A stretch of DNA of 64,000 nucleotides, from sequence record NC_047749.1; one strand, written 5' to 3'. The position numbers and the translations under genes were made by a program. Below the pieces are notes generated by a model. It was not told the DNA's origin, did not search any database, and saw only the letters and a list, made by a program, of their open reading frames with translations. Below are positions 3,711 to 63,208 of the stretch, piece by piece; the stretch's first letter is position 1, and the number at the start of each line of letters is the position of its first letter. Origin of the DNA: Escherichia phage DT571/2.

Positions 3711-3801
3711 TTTTTATTAGCTGAACTCTGATTACCGAGTCATTTTGGCTCGGTTTTCTCTATGCTCAAAGACACTGGTAGCAGCCCCTGGAAAAATTTA
3801 C

Positions 3802-3830
3802 TTGCTTGATGCTCAAAATCTTGATATAAT
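3802..3830 (+). promoter_or_regulatory. T5-type sigma70 promoter firing into a ~0.6-kb non-coding stretch
   Basis: ttgctt 3802-3807, 17-bp spacer, tataat 3825-3830, leader atttatattgaattgagagac; no ORF of 60 aa or more on + until 4425. Confidence 0.55.
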
Positions 3831-4424
3831 ATTTATATTGAATTGAGAGACATTAGTAAAAATTGATTTTGCTAATTTTTCTTAGTGAAGCTGACAAGGG
3901 ATTTACGGCGAGAGGAATCGATGACCCGTAAATAGCTGCATAAGGTACGTTGCTAGAGCTTTACGAAAAAGTTTTTTCTTGTTTACAATCCGCGATACGG
4001 AACAGTTAGGCTGCCCCATTAAGGGTTGTTTTAACTATTACTAGTGTTTATATTGCATTAGTTAACCTTCAATTAAGTGATCTGTGTACCCTGAATTCGG
4101 AAAGGTAAATCCAAACCGTGCATATTTAGCTCGTTATATAGGCAGAGCTTTATATGGGGGTGCGAACGAAAAGAGCAGCGAATGGCGGCACGTACAGTAG
4201 TCACCTACCAATAGGATAGTGAGGACAAGTAGAATCGGCTTAGCGGCCAATGACCTAGGTTCTATTCTGTATAAGAGCGAAGAGAGCACAGCACTGAGAT
4301 ATGATAACTTATTCATATTGTTTGATGATAATTGATGTTTACGTAAATAGTAGTAATAGTTGTTCTATTCTTTCTGAATAGTCCTAAAGAAAAGATTTCG
4401 ATTAACCAACACAGGAGTATTATT

Positions 4425-7214
4425 GTGTTTTCTATCCTCCAAGGTCACGCCGGGTTTTCTCGTGATTTAGCAACAGGTATTTGGCGAGAAATCAAAGCGG
4501 GAGATTATACCTTTGCCAAGCGATTCTCGAAAGAGCATCCAGAAGGTAAACCAGCTTCTATGCCCTTCAAATTTGATGTAATAGAAGAGCACGACCCACA
4601 AAGCCTTGCAGAAATGTTACCACTTATGAGACGTTTAACGTCTGACCCTCATATCGTTGCGGTACGAGGTCGATGTCTTGCACCTAAAAATAATGTGCGA
4701 CGTAAGAAAGATAACTTTAATGTATCTAATCCTAGTAATATTATTGCTATGGACGTGGATGGTATCCTAGATACCGGTGGGTACGACAAATTTAATCTTG
4801 TTGGTATGGCCCGCCACATTATTAAGATGTTGAATAGTATTAGTGAGGATATGTTTCCTCTTGATGCAGGCTTTATAGCTCATGCATCATCTTCGGCTGG
4901 GCTAAAACCAGGTATCCGAATGCACTTAATACTAGAATCTAACGTCAAGGTAACTCAGGGTCAGCTAAAGTTCTTATTTACATCTATCAATGATAGTAGT
5001 AAGCAAAAATTTGGTTTTGATATTGCCGACCTAGCTTATTACTCATCTGTCCAGCTCCACTATTTTGCCGACCCCTTATTTAGCGATGGTATTGTTGATC
5101 CGTTTAAAGCGGAGAGTAAGCCACGTCTGGTGTATGTTAAAGGCTCAAAAGTAAACTTACCTAATAATCTAGTTGACTATGAAACAACTAGAGGAGAGTT
5201 TAAAGAGGAATTCTACTCTTTACTCGATCAAATTAAAGGCAAAAAGATTGCTTCTGATAAAGTAGAAGAAACCATCAGCGAGTTAGAAGAGGCTGATGAT
5301 GGAGTGTACTTGCGTATTATCCCCAAACTATACCATAGAGCATTAGAGGATGGTGTTGATTTTGAATGGCTAGAACGTGAGATTAAACCAGCTTTATCTG
5401 AATATATTGCAACTAAAGATAACAGTCGTAATATTCAAGATTACTTTAATAACGGTCGCAAGCAGGCTCTCAAAGCGTTTGTTAATAATTCTAAACGTGA
5501 GATTCCACCAAATCTGAAAGGTGTTCCACTTAAGAAATTAGAAGTGGATTCTCCACCAGAAGTTCCGTACCTGAAGATTAACATTGTGCCCCCAAAAGGT
5601 CATATAACATTTGTTAAGGCAAGTCTTGGTACGGGTAAAACTACGGCAGTAACTAAATGGCTGGACGCAGGTGTTCTTCCGGGCAACTTTTTAGCAGTTA
5701 CAAATACTAGAGCACTGGTATCTTCAAATGCCAAGAAATTTAGTGCAGGACAATACGATAAGTCTGTAGATATGCTCAACTTTAAACGTGGGGCTATTGA
5801 TCGTATGTCCACAACTATTCACTCTTTGCATAAGTTCAAAAGTTTTATTGGGCAAATAGACACCATTTTTATTGATGAATGTGACGCTGTAATGAATGAC
5901 CTATTATTCGCCCCTGTTGTTAAACAACGTCGCGAGTGTATTCAAGTTCTACGTGACATCCTCATGACAGCTAAGACTGTAATCTTATCCGATGGTGATA
6001 TTAGTGCGGAAACAATTGAAGCATATGGTTCTTTGATTGAGTTCGATAAACCAGTTGCATTTTACAATCACCACCGTAAAATGTTATCAAAGGCTCATGC
6101 TTATGAATTCCCTGATGAATCCAGTATTTGGGTTGCACTTCAGACTTCTCTAGAGATGGGTGAGAAATCTATTCTAGTATCTGATTGTGGTCCTGATGAG
6201 CTGAATGAGAAGGGTATGGCACTACGTCGTAATACTGGTGCATTAGTTAAAGAAATCCATTCAAACTCCACTTCAGATGTGGATATTCGACGTATTCTGG
6301 ATTATACAACTAATGAGCTAATTGATCAACAAATTGATTGCTTATTATGTAGTCCATCCGTAACGAGTGGAGTTGACTTTAACTATTTTGATAACGTATT
6401 TGTTATTACTAGAACCAGTAATCAGGCGCCAAACATGCGTTTTCAAGCAATCAGGCGCGACCGTGGTGCTCAGAATATCTATTATTTTATTGATAAATCC
6501 ACTAGTGGATTCTCTGCGGGTTCTGAACAATATAATATCGATGAAGGTTGGCTGGAGTTAGCACAGCAATTATATGCACGTCGCAGGGAGCTGGAGTCTA
6601 GGAACTATACTAGTACTTTACGTTATTACTTGCTTGATCAGGGTGCAACTATTGATATTTTCAGTGAAAGCTGGGGAACTATTGAAGGTGCTGGTAAAGA
6701 ATACACAGAAGAGCGAATCAAAGCTATTCTACATTCAACTCCTGATTATTGTGCTCCACGTCATGCGGATGCGTATGAGGCTAAACTACTTATTGTTCGC
6801 TATTATCATCTTGAGTCTATTAAAGATGTAACAGTTGAGCATGTTGAACAATATATCAAAGATAAGCCGAATGATCGAGCTGCATTCTTCCATAAGATGC
6901 ACGAGATGTTCTGGGAAGATATTAAGAAGTGTTCAAATGTGACCATTAAACCATTCATAGAAGCTCTGAAAGGTAAGAAGAAAGATTTCTTCCTTAAAAC
7001 AGGTCAGAGTGCTAACCCAAAATATGCTAGAATGTATCTTGGTATGATGGGTATTGGTAAAGATATGAACACGGAGAATATCGTAGACTGGTATAGAACC
7101 TACTGCAAAATCGAATGTATGCCAATCCCTCTCAAATTCATGACTGAAGAAGAGAAGGCTATGGCAGAAGAAGCAATGTCAGAACTAGGTGCTAGAAATG
7201 ACAGTGAAGAATAA
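4425..7214 (+). CDS. 929-aa Walker A/B ATPase-helicase, putative replication initiator/origin-binding-type protein
   Basis: GTG start with SD acaggag 7 nt upstream; Walker A SLGTGKTT and Walker B FIDECD in the C-terminal half; N-terminal half has DVDG (DxD) and GIRMH motifs compatible with a primase-polymerase-like domain. Confidence 0.6.
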   Translation: MFSILQGHAGFSRDLATGIWREIKAGDYTFAKRFSKEHPEGKPASMPFKFDVIEEHDPQSLAEMLPLMRRLTSDPHIVAVRGRCLAPKNNVRRKKDNFNVSNPSNIIAMDVDGILDTGGYDKFNLVGMARHIIKMLNSISEDMFPLDAGFIAHASSSAGLKPGIRMHLILESNVKVTQGQLKFLFTSINDSSKQKFGFDIADLAYYSSVQLHYFADPLFSDGIVDPFKAESKPRLVYVKGSKVNLPNNLVDYETTRGEFKEEFYSLLDQIKGKKIASDKVEETISELEEADDGVYLRIIPKLYHRALEDGVDFEWLEREIKPALSEYIATKDNSRNIQDYFNNGRKQALKAFVNNSKREIPPNLKGVPLKKLEVDSPPEVPYLKINIVPPKGHITFVKASLGTGKTTAVTKWLDAGVLPGNFLAVTNTRALVSSNAKKFSAGQYDKSVDMLNFKRGAIDRMSTTIHSLHKFKSFIGQIDTIFIDECDAVMNDLLFAPVVKQRRECIQVLRDILMTAKTVILSDGDISAETIEAYGSLIEFDKPVAFYNHHRKMLSKAHAYEFPDESSIWVALQTSLEMGEKSILVSDCGPDELNEKGMALRRNTGALVKEIHSNSTSDVDIRRILDYTTNELIDQQIDCLLCSPSVTSGVDFNYFDNVFVITRTSNQAPNMRFQAIRRDRGAQNIYYFIDKSTSGFSAGSEQYNIDEGWLELAQQLYARRRELESRNYTSTLRYYLLDQGATIDIFSESWGTIEGAGKEYTEERIKAILHSTPDYCAPRHADAYEAKLLIVRYYHLESIKDVTVEHVEQYIKDKPNDRAAFFHKMHEMFWEDIKKCSNVTIKPFIEALKGKKKDFFLKTGQSANPKYARMYLGMMGIGKDMNTENIVDWYRTYCKIECMPIPLKFMTEEEKAMAEEAMSELGARNDSEE

Positions 7215-7431
7215 AAAATGGGAAACAAGGAAGTTTCCAGTAAAAGAACGTAAAGTTCCTGTTTATGATACTTCGGAGAAGCTATGTAGGGTGGTTCCTG
7301 CTAGACTAGCAGGTATCCCTAACATATCCGAGTGGTTACTTAAACAACGGAGGACTAGCGTATCCCTTCGCATAGGGTTTGAGTTGGATAAAGTATATGC
7401 TGAACTTTCTTCTTTGCTCAAGGAATCATAA
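7189..7431 (+). CDS. Hypothetical protein (80 aa)
   Basis: ORF overlaps the end of the 929-aa gene; basic; weak support. Confidence 0.3.
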   Translation: MLEMTVKNKKWETRKFPVKERKVPVYDTSEKLCRVVPARLAGIPNISEWLLKQRRTSVSLRIGFELDKVYAELSSLLKES

Positions 7432-7500: not shown

Positions 7501-8205
7501 ATGGCTGGTTCTCGCAGAAAGAAACATATCCATGAAATCCCGGATGAAGTCTTTAAAAAAGTTATAGAGCATCTGGAGAACGGTGGTACTAAGAAAGCAG
7601 CATGTGAGATGCTCGGCGTATCATCCAATCCGACTATGGAAAGGATGATAGAAGAGTGGCAAGATCGCCAAATTCAAGTTGCCGAGATGAAGAAAAAGAA
7701 ACGTGGTACACTCATTGAAGGCATCGAGTTAGCTAACGTTATTGAACAGTATTTATCCGGTGATTCTTTTGAAGAGATTGCCGATCGTAATTATCGCTCT
7801 GTAGCAATGGTTAAATCTGTTCTGGAACGATATGGTGCTCTACTTCGTTTGAACGATATTGTAGACCCGTTGAATCCACCAATTATTCCTGATGATGCTG
7901 TAGCAGAAGAATTTGAAGTAGGTGAGCTAGTTTGGGTTCCTGGATACCAGTGTATCGGTGAAATCAAAAAAGCAATGGATAACCCTGTTGGTTGTTACCG
8001 TGTATGGCTTCTATCAGAAGGCAAACAACAGAATGTTCATTATATGAATTATGAATTAGCTTCTGTAAAGCATTTAGAAAAGCTAGGGGTTGACGTAAAA
8101 TCTCTGGGGTATAAATGGTCCCGGGAAGAAGTTATCACACTGATTAACGAAGCTGTTAAGGCTGCCTTGAAACTTGATAAAGAAAAAGGAAAACGCCGTG
8201 AGTAA
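7501..8205 (+). CDS. Putative DNA-binding transcription regulator with two HTH motifs
   Basis: HTH-like GTKKAACEMLGVS, and SFEEIADRNYRSVAMVKSVLERYG resembling sigma70 region-4 helices; immediately downstream of a strong promoter. Confidence 0.5.
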   Translation: MAGSRRKKHIHEIPDEVFKKVIEHLENGGTKKAACEMLGVSSNPTMERMIEEWQDRQIQVAEMKKKKRGTLIEGIELANVIEQYLSGDSFEEIADRNYRSVAMVKSVLERYGALLRLNDIVDPLNPPIIPDDAVAEEFEVGELVWVPGYQCIGEIKKAMDNPVGCYRVWLLSEGKQQNVHYMNYELASVKHLEKLGVDVKSLGYKWSREEVITLINEAVKAALKLDKEKGKRRE

Positions 8206-12634: not shown

Positions 12635-12666
12635 AGGGGAGGGGGCTATGCTCCTTCCCCTTTTTG
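12635..12666 (+). terminator. Rho-independent terminator
   Basis: GC-rich hairpin aggggaggggg...ctccttcccc followed by ttttt. Confidence 0.6.
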
Positions 12667-12698
12667 CATTTAGAAGGCACGAAAGCGTGCAAAGGAGA

Positions 12699-14171
12699 AT
12701 GACCTTGTTTAACGTGCAAGCTGTAGTGTTGAAGATGCTTCTAGCTTCAGAACAGAAGCAAATAGCATTGGAAACATTCTCAAAACTGCATAAAGATCAT
12801 TTTAATGACGCTTTCTCCTCAATTTACCAAGCCGTCCAGAATTATTATAAAAAGTATAACACAATGCCGTCCATTGACGCACTGATGCTTGAGGCTAATA
12901 GGAACGCCCGCCTTTCTCAAGCTCTAGTCGTTTTAGCTAACACTCAAATTCCAGAAGTTAGCATGGAACAGGCACTTGAAGTCCTAGAGGCCGAGTATAC
13001 ACAGGATTTATTCCTGAAGCTTCTAGAAACAGACGTGCTTCAAGATTTAACAATGCTGGATCAGGGAGAAATTCTTAACCGAGTTGCCTCCCTTCACTTA
13101 AAATTAGAAGAGAAAGTAACGAATACTGGAAAAGTATTCAACGCAGATAACATGCGTATTTTCCAGAGAGAAGAAGATACCAAACTGAACTTAATCGCTC
13201 TTGGTATTTGTAATGAGTTCGACGCTCAAATTGGTTTAGCTCGCACAGAAACGTTACTGCTTGGTGGTTGGCGTGGTACTGGTAAATCCATTATCTGTTC
13301 AAACATACAGGTTCAGCAATATTTGAATGGAGATATTGCTCCATACTTCTCAATTGAGATGAAAGAACATGAAGTATTTAGACGTAATCTAGCTATGTTA
13401 GCTGGTGTATCAGCACTAGCAATGCGTAATAATACTCTAGAAGGTGCAGCTCTGTTGAGATTAGCCAGAACTAGAGCTAGGATGTTTAACGGTGGTGAAG
13501 AGCTTTTCGATAACTTCGTTAAACAGTATACAATGGCTAAGATGTGTGATTTCTACGATATGGAAAGTAAGCTAATAGAAGGGTATGAGCTACATACTCC
13601 TATGATTATTGTTTATGATCCTGAGCTGTCTATTACAACAGTTGACGTAGAATTAAATAAATTAGTTGCTAGATACGGGGATAAAGTTACAGTAGCTTTA
13701 CTAGACTATATTAACCAAACCCGACTTCCAGACTCTAAAACCATTGATATGTATGACTGGAAAGAACAGATGGTTGTTAGCTCGTCTTTCAAATCTATCT
13801 GCCAGAAACATAACGTGGCTGGTGTAGCTCCTTACCAGATCGATCAAGATGGTAGAACACGTATGTCGAAGGGGATTCTTGATTCCGCAGACATGGCTGC
13901 TAATCTTAATGCTGCAAAAGCTGATAATGGTCAAGGTGCTATTATGTTTGACTTCGTTAAGACTCGGTCTTCTGATAGCGTGAAGTTTATGCCTAAAATG
14001 AACTGGGAAACCCTGCGGATGGATAACACTACCAACCTAGCAATGGAAGATATATCTCAAATGGAAGCTGAGTTCGTTATCCCTATTGAGAAGGATAAGC
14101 CGGCTCAATCCAAACGTGCTAAGAAAGACAAAGCTGAAAATTCAACAGGTGAACAGGCCAGCGATATATGA
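12699..14171 (+). CDS. DnaB-like replicative helicase
   Basis: Walker A LLLGGWRGTGKS in the C-terminal RecA-like half; precedes the primase with an ATGA overlap. Start uncertain: track ORF begins at 12648 inside the terminator hairpin, so the ATG at 12699 or TTG at 12705 after SD aaggaga is more plausible. Confidence 0.6.
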   Translation: MTLFNVQAVVLKMLLASEQKQIALETFSKLHKDHFNDAFSSIYQAVQNYYKKYNTMPSIDALMLEANRNARLSQALVVLANTQIPEVSMEQALEVLEAEYTQDLFLKLLETDVLQDLTMLDQGEILNRVASLHLKLEEKVTNTGKVFNADNMRIFQREEDTKLNLIALGICNEFDAQIGLARTETLLLGGWRGTGKSIICSNIQVQQYLNGDIAPYFSIEMKEHEVFRRNLAMLAGVSALAMRNNTLEGAALLRLARTRARMFNGGEELFDNFVKQYTMAKMCDFYDMESKLIEGYELHTPMIIVYDPELSITTVDVELNKLVARYGDKVTVALLDYINQTRLPDSKTIDMYDWKEQMVVSSSFKSICQKHNVAGVAPYQIDQDGRTRMSKGILDSADMAANLNAAKADNGQGAIMFDFVKTRSSDSVKFMPKMNWETLRMDNTTNLAMEDISQMEAEFVIPIEKDKPAQSKRAKKDKAENSTGEQASDI

Positions 14172-15058
14172 GTAGAATAACAGAACTACTTGATCTGAAA
14201 GGCATTGAGTATAAAGACACAGGTGGGGACATCCTCATCTGTTGTCTCAACCCAGATCATGATGATAAACACCCAAGTTTGCGTATTGACCCTGAAACAG
14301 GTATTATGCACTGCTTGAGTTGTGGCTTCGGTAAAGGTATACCGAGCATTTACCATTATTTTAATGAGACTCAGTACCGACAGTCCCCAAGACTATCCCA
14401 AGTACGTAAAAAGATTTCAGAGATTAGAAATGGATCTACAAATCTTGCAATCCCAGAATCTGCTTTTCTTTTTGAAGGTGATTTCCGGGGTATCAGTTCT
14501 AAGACCTTAAAGAAATATTTTGCTTTCCAACACCAAGAGGACTGGGAGGGCAGAATTGTATTCCCAATCACAGATGCTGTTGGACGCAATATCCTATTTT
14601 TGGGTCGTTCTATAAACAGTTCTGCCCCTCCTAAATACTTAGTAAAACCAAAACAAGTTTCACCACCAATTTTCCCTGTACGATATAATACTCCAGTTCT
14701 TATTCTAGTTGAAGGCATCTTTGATATGCTGAAGCTAGAGGATAATGGTATAGACTATGCTTCCTGCTGCTTTGGTACACATCAGTTTACTTCTGATAAC
14801 ATTGCAGATAAGTTCAGTCCTTATATTATTGCCGGCGTAAAAGTTGTTGTTATCTTACTAGATAATGATGCTTCTGGTAATAAAGCTGCACAAGCACTGG
14901 CCAAGCTAATTCGTACAAAAACGCGTTTAACACCTGTAGTTGCTAACTTTCTTCTGCCTGAAGGTAAAGACCCTGGTGATTTAAATAAAGAAGAAGTCGA
15001 TACGTTAGCAAAACGTATTGAAATTTTAGTTGCTGAATCACTTAAAGATTTGGTATAA
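14168..15058 (+). CDS. DnaG-type DNA primase (zinc-ribbon + TOPRIM)
   Basis: N-terminal zinc-binding CCLNPDHDDKHPSL...HCLSCGFG; TOPRIM-like LVEGIFDMLKL and LLDNDASGNKAA. Confidence 0.75.
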   Translation: MSRITELLDLKGIEYKDTGGDILICCLNPDHDDKHPSLRIDPETGIMHCLSCGFGKGIPSIYHYFNETQYRQSPRLSQVRKKISEIRNGSTNLAIPESAFLFEGDFRGISSKTLKKYFAFQHQEDWEGRIVFPITDAVGRNILFLGRSINSSAPPKYLVKPKQVSPPIFPVRYNTPVLILVEGIFDMLKLEDNGIDYASCCFGTHQFTSDNIADKFSPYIIAGVKVVVILLDNDASGNKAAQALAKLIRTKTRLTPVVANFLLPEGKDPGDLNKEEVDTLAKRIEILVAESLKDLV

Positions 15059-15120: not shown

Positions 15121-17688
15121 TTGAAAATCGCAGTAGTTGATAAAGCTCTAAACAACACTCGTTACGATAAACATTTCCAGCTATACGGCGAGGAAGTTGA
15201 TGTATTCCATATGTGTAACGAGAAGTTGTCCGGTCGTTTGCTCAAAAAGCATATTACTATCGGGACCCCGGAAAACCCATTTGACCCGAATGATTATGAT
15301 TTTGTTATACTGGTAGGTGCCGAACCTTTCCTGTACTTTGCGGGTAAGAAAGGTATTGGTGATTATACTGGTAAACGTGTAGAGTATAATGGATATGCTA
15401 ACTGGATTGCTAGTATCAGCCCAGCCCAGCTACACTTTAAACCTGAAATGAAACCAGTTTTTGATGCAACAGTAGAGAATATCCACGATATTATCAATGG
15501 TCGTGAGAAGATTGCAAAAGCTGGTGATTACCGTCCTATTACTGACCCCGACAAGGCAGAAGAATATATCAAGATGGTGTATAATATGGTTATCGGACCT
15601 GTCGCATTCGACTCCGAAACCTCAGCACTATACTGTCGAGATGGTTATCTGCTTGGTGTTTCTATGTCTCACCAAGAGTATCAGGGTGTATATATCGATT
15701 CTGATTGTCTTACAGAAGTTGCAGTATATTATCTCCAGAAAATTCTGGATAGTGAAAACCATACTATTGTTTTTCACAACTTGAAGTTTGATATGCACTT
15801 TTATAAGTACCATCTGGGACTTACTTTTGATAAAGCACATAAAGAACACAGGCTCCATGATACCATGTTGCAGCATTATGTTCTAGATGAACGTCGTGGT
15901 ACTCATGGCTTGAAATCTCTAGCAATGAAGTATACCGATATGGGTGACTATGACTTCGAACTAGATAAGTTCAAAGATGATTACTGCAAAGCACATAAAA
16001 TCAAGAAAGAAGATTTCACCTATGATTTGATTCCATTTGATATTATGTGGCCTTACGCTGCAAAAGATACAGATGCTACCCTACGTTTACACAACTTCTT
16101 TTTACCAAAAATTGAGAAGAATGAAAAACTTTGCAGTCTGTATTACGATGTTCTAATGCCTGGTTGTGTATTCCTACAGCGTGTCGAAGATCGTGGCGTA
16201 CCTATCTCTATTGATCGTTTGAAAGAAGCTCAGTATCAATTGACTCATAATTTGAATAAAGCCCGTGAGAAACTGTACACTTATCCAGAAGTTAAACAGC
16301 TAGAACAAGATCAGAATGTAGCATTTAACCCGAACTCTGTTAAACAACTTCGTGTTCTTCTATTCGATTATGTTGGTTTGACTCCAACTGGTAAGTTAAC
16401 GGATACTGGTGCAGATTCTACAAACGCAGAAGCTCTGAATGAACTGGCAACCCAGCATCCGATTGCTAAAACTCTTCTAGAGATTCGTAAGCTGACTAAG
16501 CTGATCTCTACTTACGTTGAGAAGATTCTACTGAGTATTGATGCAGATGGTTGCATTCGTACTGGTTTCCATGAACATATGACTACTTCTGGTCGTCTGA
16601 GTTCTTCTGGTAAACTGAACCTGCAACAGCTACCTCGTGATGAATCTATCATTAAGGGTTGTGTAGTTGCACCACCTGGATACCGTGTAATCGCATGGGA
16701 CTTAACAACTGCGGAAGTTTATTATGCTGCTGTTCTATCTGGTGATAGAAATATGCAACAAGTATTTATTAACATGAGAAATGAACCTGATAAATACCCT
16801 GACTTCCACTCTAACATCGCCCACATGGTATTTAAATTGCAATGTGAACCTCGTGATGTTAAAAAGTTATTCCCAGCTCTGCGTCAAGCAGCTAAGGCAA
16901 TTACCTTTGGTATTTTGTACGGTTCTGGCCCGGCTAAAGTAGCACATTCTGTTAACGAAGCATTGCTAGAACAAGCAGCCAAAACTGGGGAACCATTTGT
17001 TGAATGTACTGTTGCAGATGCTAAAGAGTACATTGAGACTTACTTTGGTCAATTCCCACAGCTTAAGCGTTGGATTGATAAGTGCCACGATCAGATCAAG
17101 AATCATGGATTTATCTATAGTCACTTTGGTCGTAAACGTCGTCTGCATAATATCCACTCCGAAGACCGTGGTGTTCAGGGTGAAGAAATCCGTTCTGGAT
17201 TTAACGCAATCATTCAGTCTGCTTCTTCTGATAGTCTCCTTTTAGGTGCTGTAGATGCAGATAATGAGATCATTTCTCTTGGCCTAGAACAAGAGATGAA
17301 GATTGTTATGCTGGTTCATGACTCCGTAGTTGCTATTGTTCGTGAAGACTTGATTGATCAATACAATGAGATCCTGATTCGTAATATTCAGAAAGACCGT
17401 GGTATCAGTATTCCTGGCTGTCCAATTGGTATTGATTCAGATTCTGAAGCTGGAGGTTCTCGTGACTATTCTTGTGGTAAGATGAAGAAACAGCACCCAT
17501 CAATCGCTTGTATTGATGATGACGAATATACTCGTTACGTTAAAGAAATGCTTCTTGATTCTGAATTCGAGTATAAGAAATTAGCTGCAATGGATAAAGA
17601 GCATCCAGACCACAGCAAGTACAAGGATGATAAGTTTATTGCTGTATGTAAAGATCTGGATAACGTGAAAAGGGTTCTCGGTGCTTAA
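15121..17688 (+). CDS. DNA polymerase, family A with 3'-5' exonuclease (T5-type, 855 aa)
   Basis: TTG start after SD agaggag; Exo I motif FDSETSAL; motif B RQAAKAITFGILYGSG; motif C LVHDSV; 855 aa, same length as T5 DNA polymerase as I recall it. Confidence 0.9.
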   Translation: MKIAVVDKALNNTRYDKHFQLYGEEVDVFHMCNEKLSGRLLKKHITIGTPENPFDPNDYDFVILVGAEPFLYFAGKKGIGDYTGKRVEYNGYANWIASISPAQLHFKPEMKPVFDATVENIHDIINGREKIAKAGDYRPITDPDKAEEYIKMVYNMVIGPVAFDSETSALYCRDGYLLGVSMSHQEYQGVYIDSDCLTEVAVYYLQKILDSENHTIVFHNLKFDMHFYKYHLGLTFDKAHKEHRLHDTMLQHYVLDERRGTHGLKSLAMKYTDMGDYDFELDKFKDDYCKAHKIKKEDFTYDLIPFDIMWPYAAKDTDATLRLHNFFLPKIEKNEKLCSLYYDVLMPGCVFLQRVEDRGVPISIDRLKEAQYQLTHNLNKAREKLYTYPEVKQLEQDQNVAFNPNSVKQLRVLLFDYVGLTPTGKLTDTGADSTNAEALNELATQHPIAKTLLEIRKLTKLISTYVEKILLSIDADGCIRTGFHEHMTTSGRLSSSGKLNLQQLPRDESIIKGCVVAPPGYRVIAWDLTTAEVYYAAVLSGDRNMQQVFINMRNEPDKYPDFHSNIAHMVFKLQCEPRDVKKLFPALRQAAKAITFGILYGSGPAKVAHSVNEALLEQAAKTGEPFVECTVADAKEYIETYFGQFPQLKRWIDKCHDQIKNHGFIYSHFGRKRRLHNIHSEDRGVQGEEIRSGFNAIIQSASSDSLLLGAVDADNEIISLGLEQEMKIVMLVHDSVVAIVREDLIDQYNEILIRNIQKDRGISIPGCPIGIDSDSEAGGSRDYSCGKMKKQHPSIACIDDDEYTRYVKEMLLDSEFEYKKLAAMDKEHPDHSKYKDDKFIAVCKDLDNVKRVLGA

Positions 17689-18178
17689 TTTCAAATTGCC
17701 CGTCTATGCGTTACGGGCGTTTGTATCAATTGAGCAAGAAGGTGATTATTCCGTAATTACAACAAGATATAATAAATATGTGCTAGATAACAGGAAGTTG
17801 CCTGGCACGTTTTCTCAACGTAGGCTTATTCTATTTGAGAAACGGAAAGAATTACCATATAAGCTCTATCCTATTAGAGGTAGAATATCAATGTTGTCTC
17901 AATTAGTTGGGTCAAAGCGTAACCAATTTGTAGATTCTGATGGAAATCTTATTAATTGGAAGAAAACTACGTTCTATGATGTTGTCACCTCTAAAGTTTT
18001 GCATTCAGCTAGAATTTACAATGGAAAATACCAATGCTATGTGGCTAAAGTCCCTTATCCATTTGTATTATCCTATGTTCCAGCTTATATAAGCTATATT
18101 CTGGTAAATAATAGCCCTGTTATTTATCAAGTCCATCAAGAGGAGCCTGAAATTCCTAGACTTAGAATAAAATTATGA
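17681..18178 (+). CDS. Hypothetical protein (165 aa)
   Basis: ORF overlapping polymerase stop and helicase start (ATGA). Confidence 0.4.
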   Translation: MLNFKLPVYALRAFVSIEQEGDYSVITTRYNKYVLDNRKLPGTFSQRRLILFEKRKELPYKLYPIRGRISMLSQLVGSKRNQFVDSDGNLINWKKTTFYDVVTSKVLHSARIYNGKYQCYVAKVPYPFVLSYVPAYISYILVNNSPVIYQVHQEEPEIPRLRIKL

Positions 18179-19527
18179 AGGTTGTTATATCTAATAAAGC
18201 CTATTTCAAGCCCGATGATGAACTTTGGGATTATTGTAGTAAGCAAACCACTTACCACATAGAGACAATGACTAGTAAATACCCTATTATGTATAAGAAT
18301 AGTGGTGTTGTTGCCAAAGAGATTAAGTGGATTCCTATTACACGTCTGGATTTACTAGATGCTAAAGGAATAAAATACGAATTAGTTGATAAACGCACGT
18401 TAGCTCCGGTAGATATACCAAAACCGTCGTTTAAACTGCGTGAAGAAGATCAGCTTCCAATATATGAAGAATGCGATGATACCTGCATTATTAATGGTAA
18501 GCCTGGGTTTGGTAAAACTATCCTAGCCCTTGCACTTGCGTATAAATTTGGCCAGAAAACTTTGGTAATCTGTACGAATACATCCATTCGTGAAATGTGG
18601 GCAGCAGAAGTTCGTAAATGGTTTGGGTTTGAACCGGGCATCATAGGTTCTGGGAAATACAATATCGATCCACCAATTGTAGTCAGTAATATTCAAACAG
18701 TGAATAAACATGCGAATAATCTTTCTAAAGTATTCGGTACTGTTATAGTTGATGAAGTTCACCATTGTGTGGCTACAACTTTCACTAACTTCCTAGAAAT
18801 ATCATGTGCTCGCTATAAAATTGGACTATCTGGTACGTTAAAACGTAAGGATGGCTTGCAAGTTATGTTCAAAGATTTCTTTGGATATAAAATATTTAGC
18901 CCGCCGGTTAATAATACTGTTGCACCTACAATCCATAGGTACTCCGTACCAGTTGAATTGTCTGGAAACCAAAACGTACCGTGGGCATTACGTGCTAACG
19001 ATGTGTATAACCACCCTGAATATCGAGGAGCTATTATAAACCTAGCACATTTATATGTGAATATGGGACATAAAGTACTCATTGTAAGTGATAGAACAGA
19101 GTTAATCCAAACAGTACTAGAAGCTCTTACGCAGCGGGGTGTCACAACATATGAAATTATAGGGGCAACCCACTTAGATGACCGATTAAAAATTCAGGAA
19201 GATATAGCAAAAGGTGGGCCTTGTGTACTTGCAGCAGCTCAAAGTATCTTCTCTGAGGGTATTTCCCTTAATGAGCTATCTTGTTTAATAATGGGAAGCC
19301 TCATTAATAATGAATCTCTCATTGAACAGCTTGCAGGCCGTGTTCAACGTATTGTCGATGGTAAACTCGACCCTATTGTTGTAGATCTAATTATGAAGGG
19401 GGGCACTGGACTAAGACAGGCTTCTGGACGTATGGCAGTATATCGTAACAACGGGTGGAAAACTATTACTATGACTCCAGAGAAAGCAGTTCAATTAGCT
19501 AAAATTGCATTTGGCAACAGCTCATAA
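18175..19527 (+). CDS. SF2-type DNA helicase (T5 D10-like position)
   Basis: Walker A NGKPGFGKT, Walker B DEVHH, helicase C-terminal-like region; placement after polymerase as in T5. Confidence 0.7.
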   Translation: MKVVISNKAYFKPDDELWDYCSKQTTYHIETMTSKYPIMYKNSGVVAKEIKWIPITRLDLLDAKGIKYELVDKRTLAPVDIPKPSFKLREEDQLPIYEECDDTCIINGKPGFGKTILALALAYKFGQKTLVICTNTSIREMWAAEVRKWFGFEPGIIGSGKYNIDPPIVVSNIQTVNKHANNLSKVFGTVIVDEVHHCVATTFTNFLEISCARYKIGLSGTLKRKDGLQVMFKDFFGYKIFSPPVNNTVAPTIHRYSVPVELSGNQNVPWALRANDVYNHPEYRGAIINLAHLYVNMGHKVLIVSDRTELIQTVLEALTQRGVTTYEIIGATHLDDRLKIQEDIAKGGPCVLAAAQSIFSEGISLNELSCLIMGSLINNESLIEQLAGRVQRIVDGKLDPIVVDLIMKGGTGLRQASGRMAVYRNNGWKTITMTPEKAVQLAKIAFGNSS

Positions 19528-61185: not shown

Positions 61186-61365
61186 ATAATAACTATAAAA
61201 ATAATCACCGTTAAAATAATCACTATAAAAATAATCACCATTAAAATAATAACTATAGAAATAATCACCATTATAATAATCACCATTAAAATAATCACTA
61301 TAAAAATAATCACCATTAAAATAATCACTATAAAAATAATCACCATTATTATAATCACTATAAGA
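61186..61365. repeat. Tandem array, ~12 copies of a 15-bp AT-rich unit (ATAATCAC[C/T][A/G]TTAAA / ATAATCACTATAAAA)
   Basis: Contiguous 15-bp periodicity read directly from the sequence. Confidence 0.9.
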
Positions 61366-61401
61366 AACTATCGGCTTAAGTGAGAACCACTATCATTTAA
61401 G

Positions 61402-61510
61402 TTATCCACAACGTTATCCACAGCACAAAATGATTTGACACGATAGGCGGCGATATAAAGATTTATCCACAGACTTATCCACAGGTTATCCTACTGTATA
61501 TTTATCCAGG
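61402..61510. promoter_or_regulatory. DnaA-box cluster (4 perfect TTATCCACA plus 2 variants)
   Basis: TTATCCACA at 61402, 61414, 61463, 61475; variants ttatcctac 61486 and ttatccagg 61502. Confidence 0.8.
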
Positions 61511-61880
61511 GTAAAAAGATAGTGTTTACAACTGCAATCAATTTTGAGCGGCCTAAAACGCTTTCTAACGAGCTGATCGCTGTAGGGTAATATTAAAGTA
61601 AAGCCTTTACCCGTCGGCCTAGAGGCTTCGCCGTGTTTTGCTCTTTACTGCACCGCTGCGCGGTTAGCATAAAACTAGGTGTTAGGCAAGAAAAATAAAA
61701 AGTAAAGTAAACGTTGCCCCTAGAAAGAAAATAATTTTACCGGTAACATCGAAAGCGGGTAATAATTAACCTAATGTAAAGTTTTGTAAGGCCCGCCATA
61801 ATCAGCGGCCTTTTTTGTTATACTGCCCTTACACCGTTTAAGGACGGTTAAAAATTTCCCGAAAAATTTGGAGGCTTAAA

Positions 61881-63136: not shown

Positions 63137-63208
63137 CGGTGGATAACGCTTCAAAATGGCTAGAATTTTGTCAAGGCAAATCGTGCTGTTGATAAGTCTG
63201 TGGATAAC
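63137..63208. promoter_or_regulatory. Second DnaA-box group, opposite orientation (tgtggataa)
   Basis: gtggataac 63139-63147 (8/9) and perfect tgtggataa 63200-63208. Confidence 0.65.

Follow-up and report, generated by a model that had tools for sequence, protein, structure and literature searches.

What does the N-terminal half of a large phage replication helicase do when the same genome also encodes a separate helicase and primase pair? The question is raised by positions 4425 to 7214 in a 64,000-nucleotide (nt) stretch of Escherichia phage DT571/2 (NC_047749.1), the whole of which we call the window. An earlier note made from the letters alone had described a 929-amino-acid (aa) open reading frame (ORF) at this place, and re-reading of the sequence recovered both the ORF and the four motifs quoted for it, DVDG (aa 110-113, nt 4752-4763), GIRMH (aa 163-167, nt 4911-4925), GTGKTT (aa 402-407, nt 5628-5645) and FIDECD (aa 482-487, nt 5868-5885). 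The start codon is GTG, with a Shine-Dalgarno sequence, AGGAG, at 4413-4417, 7 nt 5' of it.

4425..7214, plus strand: the D2 or 'obp' gene, from the ORF list and translation, for a 929-aa multidomain replication protein with predicted primase-polymerase, helical, helicase and C-terminal domains

T5 is a classic model phage, and by sequence identity the product of 4425-7214 is the orthologue of its D2 protein, and so an already characterised protein rather than a new one. It is identical to T5 D2 (AAU05245) at 913 of 926 aa (99%), agrees with it in GTG start, length and place in the genome, and matches PHROG 3712 over its full length; the window DNA is 96% identical to that of T5-like Tequintavirus phages (EC122, BF23, T5_ev219), with 446 phage records matched. 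In 2013 Wong, Sayers & Sanders reported purified T5 D2 to be a DNA-dependent ATPase and a bipolar helicase that unwinds both 3'-5' and 5'-3' (PMC3632103). The K405E substitution abolishes ATPase and unwinding with full DNA binding retained, phage DNA synthesis is absent in D2 amber mutants, and D2 is essential (PMC3632103). The same work placed a UL9-related helicase core at residues 389-690, predicted a helix-turn-helix (HTH) at 308-329 as well as coiled coils, and left residues 1-388 without an assigned function (PMC3632103). Given the 913/926 identity, what was published on ATPase activity, bipolar unwinding and the need for K405 holds for the window protein as well.

The explanation that we favour, and regard as likely to be correct, is that D2 is the T5 replication helicase with an N-terminal primase-polymerase domain from the superfamily of archaeo-eukaryotic primases (AEPs). 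From the modelled fold, residues 1-260 very probably form this domain. Its predicted elements are as follows.

4425..5204, plus strand: predicted AEP (primase-polymerase) fold domain, aa 1-260
4752..4760, plus strand: AEP motif I, the metal-binding DxD D110-V-D112, invariant in both protein alignments and aligned with the [E/D]xD of All3500 AEPs
4887..4925, plus strand: AEP motif II region, S155-S-S-A-G159 ... H167 (sxH, nucleotide binding), by conservation, with H167 aligned to the His of All3500 and to H178 of IEE
5028..5030, plus strand: AEP motif III, D202, the third metal-binding carboxylate, invariant in both alignments and aligned with the motif III Asp of All3500
5124..5126, plus strand: candidate AEP motif IV, R234-L (the 'Rh' flange-strand arginine), at least 90% conserved in the 49-sequence alignment and aligned with the R of RVMRLPG in All3500

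Structure prediction, which the earlier note had called for, returned an AEP fold for the N-terminus. AlphaFold2, run on the N-terminal domain with an alignment of 49 homologues, gave a confident model (mean predicted local distance difference test score, pLDDT, 91.3; predicted template modelling score, pTM, 0.80). The model places D110 and D112 (IIAMD110VD112) on a beta-strand spanning residues 104-114, H167 at the start of strand 164-176, D202 after helix 178-196, and R234 at the start of strand 235-238. When the model was compared with the PDB using Foldseek, the top-50 list consisted almost entirely of AEP enzymes; the top hits were the Mycobacterium tuberculosis LigD PolDom (E 2.3e-3, probability 0.98), the PrimPols of African swine fever virus (ASFV), cyanophage S-2L and human, RepB', the AEP domains of vaccinia D5 and mpox E5, and the herpes simplex virus primase, and the list also had PrimPolC. 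Among the predicted viral structures of BFVD, the matches beyond T5-like proteins were phage proteins labelled 'DNA primase' or 'Primase C-terminal 2', VapE, NrS-1-like primase-helicases and DUF927, at E 1e-8 to 1e-4.

The residues that an AEP active site would require are also among the best conserved. Two alignments were used. The first covers 49 N-terminal domains, whose columns are on average 20% identical, and the second 29 full-length D2-like representatives. In the first, D110, D112, D202 and P217 are invariant, with at least 90% conservation at K32, R93, G159, P226 and R234. In the second, the invariant residues include D110, D112, S155, H167 and D202 of the N-terminal domain together with G402, G404, K405, T406, D484 and E485 of the Walker motifs, and G159 is again at least 90% conserved. 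H167 is replaced by Arg in a few distant homologues, and DR0530-like AEPs likewise have Arg at the motif II His (PMC5862659). Because the key residues are invariant across such divergent homologues, the quoted motifs are more than chance resemblances. Motif IV, 'Rh', was defined by Kazlauskas et al. 2018 and is essential in PolpTN2 (PMC5862659). The D2 N-terminus thus presents motifs I (hhhDhD/E), II (sxH) and III (hD) and the predicted catalytic fold, an alpha/beta unit at the N-terminus plus a unit resembling an RNA recognition motif (RRM), by which AEPs are recognised, and since the complete catalytic set is invariant, the domain is probably catalytically competent.

These conservation data bear directly on a different reading, in which the N-terminal domain has an AEP-like or RRM-like fold but no catalytic activity, and only serves a 'simple' SF2 (superfamily 2) helicase as a module for DNA binding, origin recognition or oligomerisation. 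An RRM-like fold of the HUH Rep origin-binding type does occur low in the Foldseek list (adeno-associated virus Rep68, E 0.1), K405E D2 keeps full DNA binding, so that parts of the protein other than the helicase must bind DNA, and by sequence the domain falls in none of the curated AEP families. Yet AEPs rather than Rep domains dominate both fold searches, the domain carries no HUH or catalytic Tyr signature, and the invariance or near-invariance of DxD, H, D and the motif IV Arg across very divergent homologues is hard to explain without catalysis. We consider a silent fold very unlikely.

The wider family of the domain leads to the same assignment of an AEP primase-polymerase. An exhaustive phmmer search of 1.84 billion representative sequences found 80 relatives, about 30 of which share the whole architecture of ~900-1000 aa and about 45 of which are distant proteins that match residues ~30-255 only, at E 1e-9 to 1e-3. 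The C-terminal partners of the domain in these distant homologues are DUF5906, a D5-type SF3 (superfamily 3) helicase domain (10), VapE-like (9), PriCT_2 (5), D5_N (2), AAA_25 (1) and Pox_D5 (1). DUF5906, VapE, PriCT_2, D5_N and the like are the standard set of modules joined to AEP primases. The PHROG 16950 'DNA primase' family is matched by 33 of the 49 aligned homologues, and D2's own N-terminus matches PHROG 3712 only. Taken with the model, the fold search and the residue invariance, the domain partners of the distant homologues bear out the earlier suggestion that DVDG and GIRMH correspond to primase-polymerase motifs I and II.

Several sequence-level results weigh against the assignment. 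The profile search for AEP families that the earlier note had proposed for the N-terminus gave no match: aa 1-390 of D2 and the 49 homologues found no AEP in Pfam or NCBIfam searches even at E 5, and aa 1-385 gave no match to an AEP among PDB profiles. Searched against PDB sequences, the N-terminal profile retrieved only GapR/UPF0335 (E 0.12, in the helical region), which we regard as chance, and a mixed full-length profile retrieved only the helicase domains of VapE and NrS-1. A profile-profile comparison (hhalign) with the All3500 AEPs, for which we built a profile from 21 primase domains in the supplement of PMC5862659, was likewise not significant (P 0.067), and aligned only motif II locally, with H167 on the family His. 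The hidden Markov model searches are empty for the N-terminus, and the fold is visible only through structure and the context of remote homologues.

Two known AEP families were considered as a home for the domain, and neither was accepted. Greedy extension of the All3500 alignment, at a non-significant score, makes all four motifs colinear, with D110/D112 on [E/D]xD, H167 on KSIH, D202 on GDRS and R234/G240 on RVMRLPG; since the motifs are colinear only under greedy alignment and P is 0.067, membership of All3500 was rejected. The comparison with IEE by hhalign covered 24 columns around motif II only (E 0.15), with H167 on IEE H178, and BLASTP of D2 against IEE found no match in the AEP region, only a helicase stretch at E 0.067; membership of the IEE family was rejected on the hhalign value and the lack of an AEP-region match. 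By fold and motifs the D2 domain belongs to the AEP superfamily, yet it is a separate family without a curated model.

The relation to IEE matters for a further alternative, that the N-terminal domain has an AEP fold but works chiefly in DNA polymerisation, end joining or repriming, in the manner of IEE or PrimPol, for example in restart at the natural T5 single-strand nicks or at stalled forks, and not as the origin primase. Outside motif II, no measurable relationship of D2 to IEE was seen, and the homologues of its AEP domain are joined to replicative primase-helicase modules. The failure of D2 amber mutants to make any phage DNA (PMC3632103) fits a role in initiation or at the fork better than one in repair, and we think the repair or repriming role unlikely. 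The phenotype of no DNA synthesis and the invariant catalytic residues together make both this and the silent fold less likely than D2 as a replication helicase with its own AEP primase-polymerase domain.

The rest of the D2 protein comprises a helical bundle, the helicase core and a C-terminal region.

5205..5492, plus strand: five-helix bundle between primase and helicase, aa 261-356, from the AlphaFold2 secondary structure; found only in D2-like homologues (~900-1000 aa)
5589..6548, plus strand: UL9/CyRepA-like SF2 helicase core, aa 389-708, with Walker A GTGKTT at 5628-5645 (K405 at 5637-5639) and Walker B FIDECD at 5868-5885
6549..7211, plus strand: conserved C-terminal region, aa 709-929, with R720 and E724 invariant in the 29 full-length representatives

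The bundle includes the HTH predicted in 2013, contains or adjoins the conserved residues A306, Y340 and R358 in the 29 D2-like representatives, and has no Pfam match. Other AEP primases have helical domains, and by analogy with these the bundle may bind the template or the initiating nucleotide. A profile of aa ~270-345 (nt ~5232-5459), which overlaps that HTH, has a weak and non-significant similarity to GapR/UPF0335 DNA-binding proteins (E 0.12-0.5) that is probably due to chance. For the C-terminal region, no match was found in Pfam, NCBIfam or PDB sequences. Single-sequence AlphaFold of full-length D2 gave a pLDDT of 36.

That the ATPase half with its Walker A and B motifs is a helicase, as the earlier note had it, is well founded: PF02399 (Herpes_ori_bp) matches aa 389-533 above its threshold (30.6 bits, cutoff 20), the Walker residues are invariant, and unwinding has been shown for the T5 protein. 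The NCBIfam model CyRepA1 (NF042913) aligns its positions 2-317 with D2 aa 392-708 at E 5e-35; at 121.4 bits against a cutoff of 200, and over the helicase part only, D2 was rejected as a CyRepA1 member. Its only sequence relatives in the PDB are UL9 chains (9hgj, 9hgi, 9zgf, 9vjh), in which RecA1 alone aligns, D2 389-552 to UL9 80-246. Judged by these matches, the C-terminal half of D2 is an SF2 helicase of the UL9/CyRepA type, not an SF3 enzyme. The D5_N and SF3 families that had also been put forward are absent from D2 in Pfam and NCBIfam, and occur only in distant homologues of its N-terminal domain.

Whether D2 recognises an origin is a separate matter from whether it is a primase-helicase. 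Similarity to the C-terminal origin-binding domain of UL9 was not detected in D2, the profile alignment being limited to D2 390-552, and the label 'replication origin binding protein' is not supported by these comparisons. The origin-recognition role put forward in the earlier note stays a suggestion: the likeness to UL9 is confined to the RecA1 helicase domain, and the DnaA-box cluster lies ~54 kb off. That cluster is presumably what the note called the repeat/DnaA-box region. At 61402-61483, a span of 82 nt, four perfect DnaA boxes (TTATCCACA) follow one another in direct orientation, in non-coding DNA (~61359-61880) between divergently oriented sets of ORFs; the boxes form two pairs 12 nt apart and are followed by degenerate copies (TTATCCTAC, TTATCCAGG), and a fifth perfect box stands at 63199-63207 on the minus strand. 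Across the window there are 9 boxes where 7.25 are expected, which is not above chance, although the cluster itself is striking; none lies near D2.

The separate DnaB/DnaG pair is present, and Pfam domains confirm both members. Further replication genes follow downstream.

12648-14171, plus strand: DnaB-like helicase, PF03796 (DnaB_C)
14168-15058, plus strand: DnaG-type primase, with Zn_ribbon_DnaG, DNAG_N and Toprim domains
15121-17688, downstream of D2: family A DNA polymerase
18175-19527, downstream of D2: a further SF2 helicase

The mechanism that we propose is a division of labour. The UL9-like SF2 helicase of D2 would open the DNA, and the covalently attached AEP domain could then prime, or extend, DNA on the strands that the helicase exposes; D2 would then be the primosome for initiation, and the work at the fork would fall to DnaB and DnaG. 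Such an initiator role gains support because helicases of this type are recurrently fused to primase-type domains, Toprim-like in CyRepA (PMC10079941) and AEP in the All3500 proteins (PMC5862659).

The region directly upstream of D2 may add a layer of control. The gap before the gene, 3711-4424, is 714 nt long and non-coding; it contains a terminator-like hairpin at 3734-3754 and, by eye, a near-consensus extended -10 promoter (TTGCTT at 3802-3807, a 17-nt spacer, TGaTATAAT at 3822-3830).

3976..4417, plus strand: conserved structured non-coding leader of ~450 nt directly 5' of D2, from conservation and RNAalifold covariation

Compared with Salmonella phage polluks, window positions 3973-4424 are 92.7% identical at the nt level, against 71-74% for the upstream ORFs and 84-87% for segments of D2. 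In an alignment of 14 divergent versions from phage records and IMG/VR, sequence-conserved ends and a conserved centre (ACGGAACAGTTAGGCTGCCCCAT, GGCTTAGCGG) flank strongly divergent interiors. The structure predicted by RNAalifold has 68 pairs, arranged in long-range helices nested in one another, and compensatory changes occur at 32 of these pairs. Paired cells amount to 95%, compared with 83% in shuffles (none of 500 reaching the observed value) and ~40% with slid partners, and the covariation score is 0.42, compared with 0.20 in shuffles and ~0.09 with slid partners, both for a structure derived from the same alignment. In the outermost predicted helix UUCUUGU (3976-3982) pairs with ACAGGAG (4411-4417), which holds the D2 Shine-Dalgarno sequence; the model suggests that this helix sequesters the Shine-Dalgarno and so places the initiator under translational control. 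Rfam searches with the leader from the window and from four further phages gave no matching family, and the leader, here reckoned over 3971-4424, is a candidate for a new cis-regulatory RNA, or possibly an origin element.

The leader varies in composition among T5-like phages. There are at least two sequence types, one in loci L016, L018, L019, L020, L028 and L029 and the other in the window and in loci L003, L006 and L011; between them both ends and the central GGCTTAGCGG are near-identical, and the interior is mostly different with the same helices. More distant versions (L012, L030 and the Klebsiella locus L010) also retain the helices. An 89-nt segment, 3884-3972, which separates the promoter-proximal hairpin from the conserved structured domain, is missing in Salmonella phage polluks, and many other records cover 88% of the gap only. 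In T5-like phages of Proteus, Klebsiella and Vibrio, too, obp is preceded by a gene-poor stretch of 600-820 nt; the Klebsiella gap aligns in part with the window leader, and those of Proteus and Vibrio give no nt-level alignment with it. The fold energy of the upstream gap has a z of -3.3 in Proteus and -0.42, no signal, in Vibrio. In Proteus phage 1 and Vibrio phage Cilsick the gap starts with a long near-perfect hairpin (L007:1764-1798, L008:1824-1864) whose upper stem is similar in the two (G[UC]AUUC / GAGUG[CU]) and whose lower stems differ and stay complementary. A 5' stem-loop may be conserved across distant genera of Demerecviridae.

Domain assignment, mechanism and leader can be drawn together in a broader conjecture, of which we are doubtful as a whole and which we put forward tentatively. 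In T5 and throughout the Demerecviridae, replication would begin with an initiator primosome made of one polypeptide, the D2 helicase with its own AEP; DnaB and DnaG would work at the fork only. D2 synthesis would be gated by a structured leader RNA of ~450 nt, which would belong to a new class and mask the ribosome-binding site. An AEP joined to a UL9-type helicase might then link the initiation of replication in tailed phages and in herpesviruses (UL52 plus UL9) within Duplodnaviria.

The D2 AEP domain was found by tblastn in 904 phage records, from T5-like genomes of ~100-128 kb with Escherichia, Salmonella, Klebsiella, Proteus, Vibrio, Aeromonas and other hosts. Most of these records carry the label 'replication origin binding protein', and a few have 'DNA primase C', for which they give no explanation. 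Altogether the names in use for the 929-aa D2 helicase include 'obp', '5'-3' and 3'-5' helicase', 'DEAD-like helicase', 'replication protein', 'hypothetical protein' and 'DNA primase C'. The tags 'D2 protein' or 'D2 helicase' are attached in several genomes (records LR597655, OR083247, MT074456) to a 234-aa HTH protein encoded downstream at 7501-8205, the gene of which is 'D3' in T5 AY692264. Directly overlapping the end of D2 in the window is an ORF of 80 aa, 7189-7431. HNH homing-endonuclease genes differ among relatives, with one immediately 3' of D2 in T5 st0 and one between dnaB and the primase gene in T5_ev219 (L003:3981-4481; L001:17583-18113); the window has no HNH gene at either site, and its dnaB abuts the primase gene (14168).

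The D2 gene and its helicase were already known, as were AEP-helicase fusions, including those of an AEP with a UL9-like SF2 helicase. The part that appears to be new is that D2, and with it the whole 'obp' family of Demerecviridae, is assigned an AEP domain, and that this AEP family is recognised as lacking a model in Pfam and NCBIfam. Literature searches turned up no description of a primase domain in D2; coverage was incomplete, so earlier recognition is possible. The assignment would correct the 'replication origin binding protein' label on most of ~900 phage records and offers a concrete, directly testable primase-polymerase candidate in a classic system. It may also help to explain the odd 'bipolar' and the nucleotide-dependent, hydrolysis-independent unwinding of D2. 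If it is true, an essential protein may both open the DNA and lay the first primer. One may also ask why two unrelated primases are kept by a virulent phage. The leader is a separate candidate regulatory RNA outside Rfam.

Comparison with known systems helps to place these results. The 2013 account of T5 D2 comprised the helicase core, the HTH and the coiled coils (PMC3632103); the primase-polymerase domain that we read in aa 1-260 was unrecognised there. The All3500 AEPs, of the PrimPol-PV1 supergroup of Kazlauskas et al. 2018 (PMC5862659), resemble D2 in having an AEP followed by a UL9-like SF2 helicase, and occur in mobile elements, whereas the spacing of their motifs is different (motif I to II ~33 aa and ~55 in D2; motif III to IV ~9 and 32 in D2); T5-like phages are absent from the tables of that study. 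IEE, from an E. coli mobile element, also combines an N-terminal AEP, for which polymerase activity has been demonstrated, with a C-terminal SF2 ATPase, but it does not unwind DNA as D2 does, and a full-length relationship is undetectable. In the AEP-SF3 primase-helicases (vaccinia D5 and MPXV E5, ASFV C962R, pRN1 ORF904 and phage NrS-1), as in D2, an AEP precedes a replicative helicase in one polypeptide. Their helicase is hexameric SF3 of the D5 type, whereas that of D2 is UL9-like SF2, and D5_N and PriCT were not detected in D2; nevertheless their AEP domains are among its best structural matches, and the distant homologues of D2 bear the same D5_N, DUF5906 and PriCT_2 modules. Herpesvirus UL9 (PF02399) shares with D2 the RecA1 region of its SF2 helicase and has no AEP domain, the herpesvirus AEP primase being the separate protein UL52. 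The cyanobacterial plasmid proteins CyRepA1 and CyRepA2 (PMC10079941) differ from D2 in that their N-terminal domain is Toprim-like (DUF3854) rather than AEP, but they too join a primase-type domain to a helicase of the same family, and they are demonstrated replication initiators.

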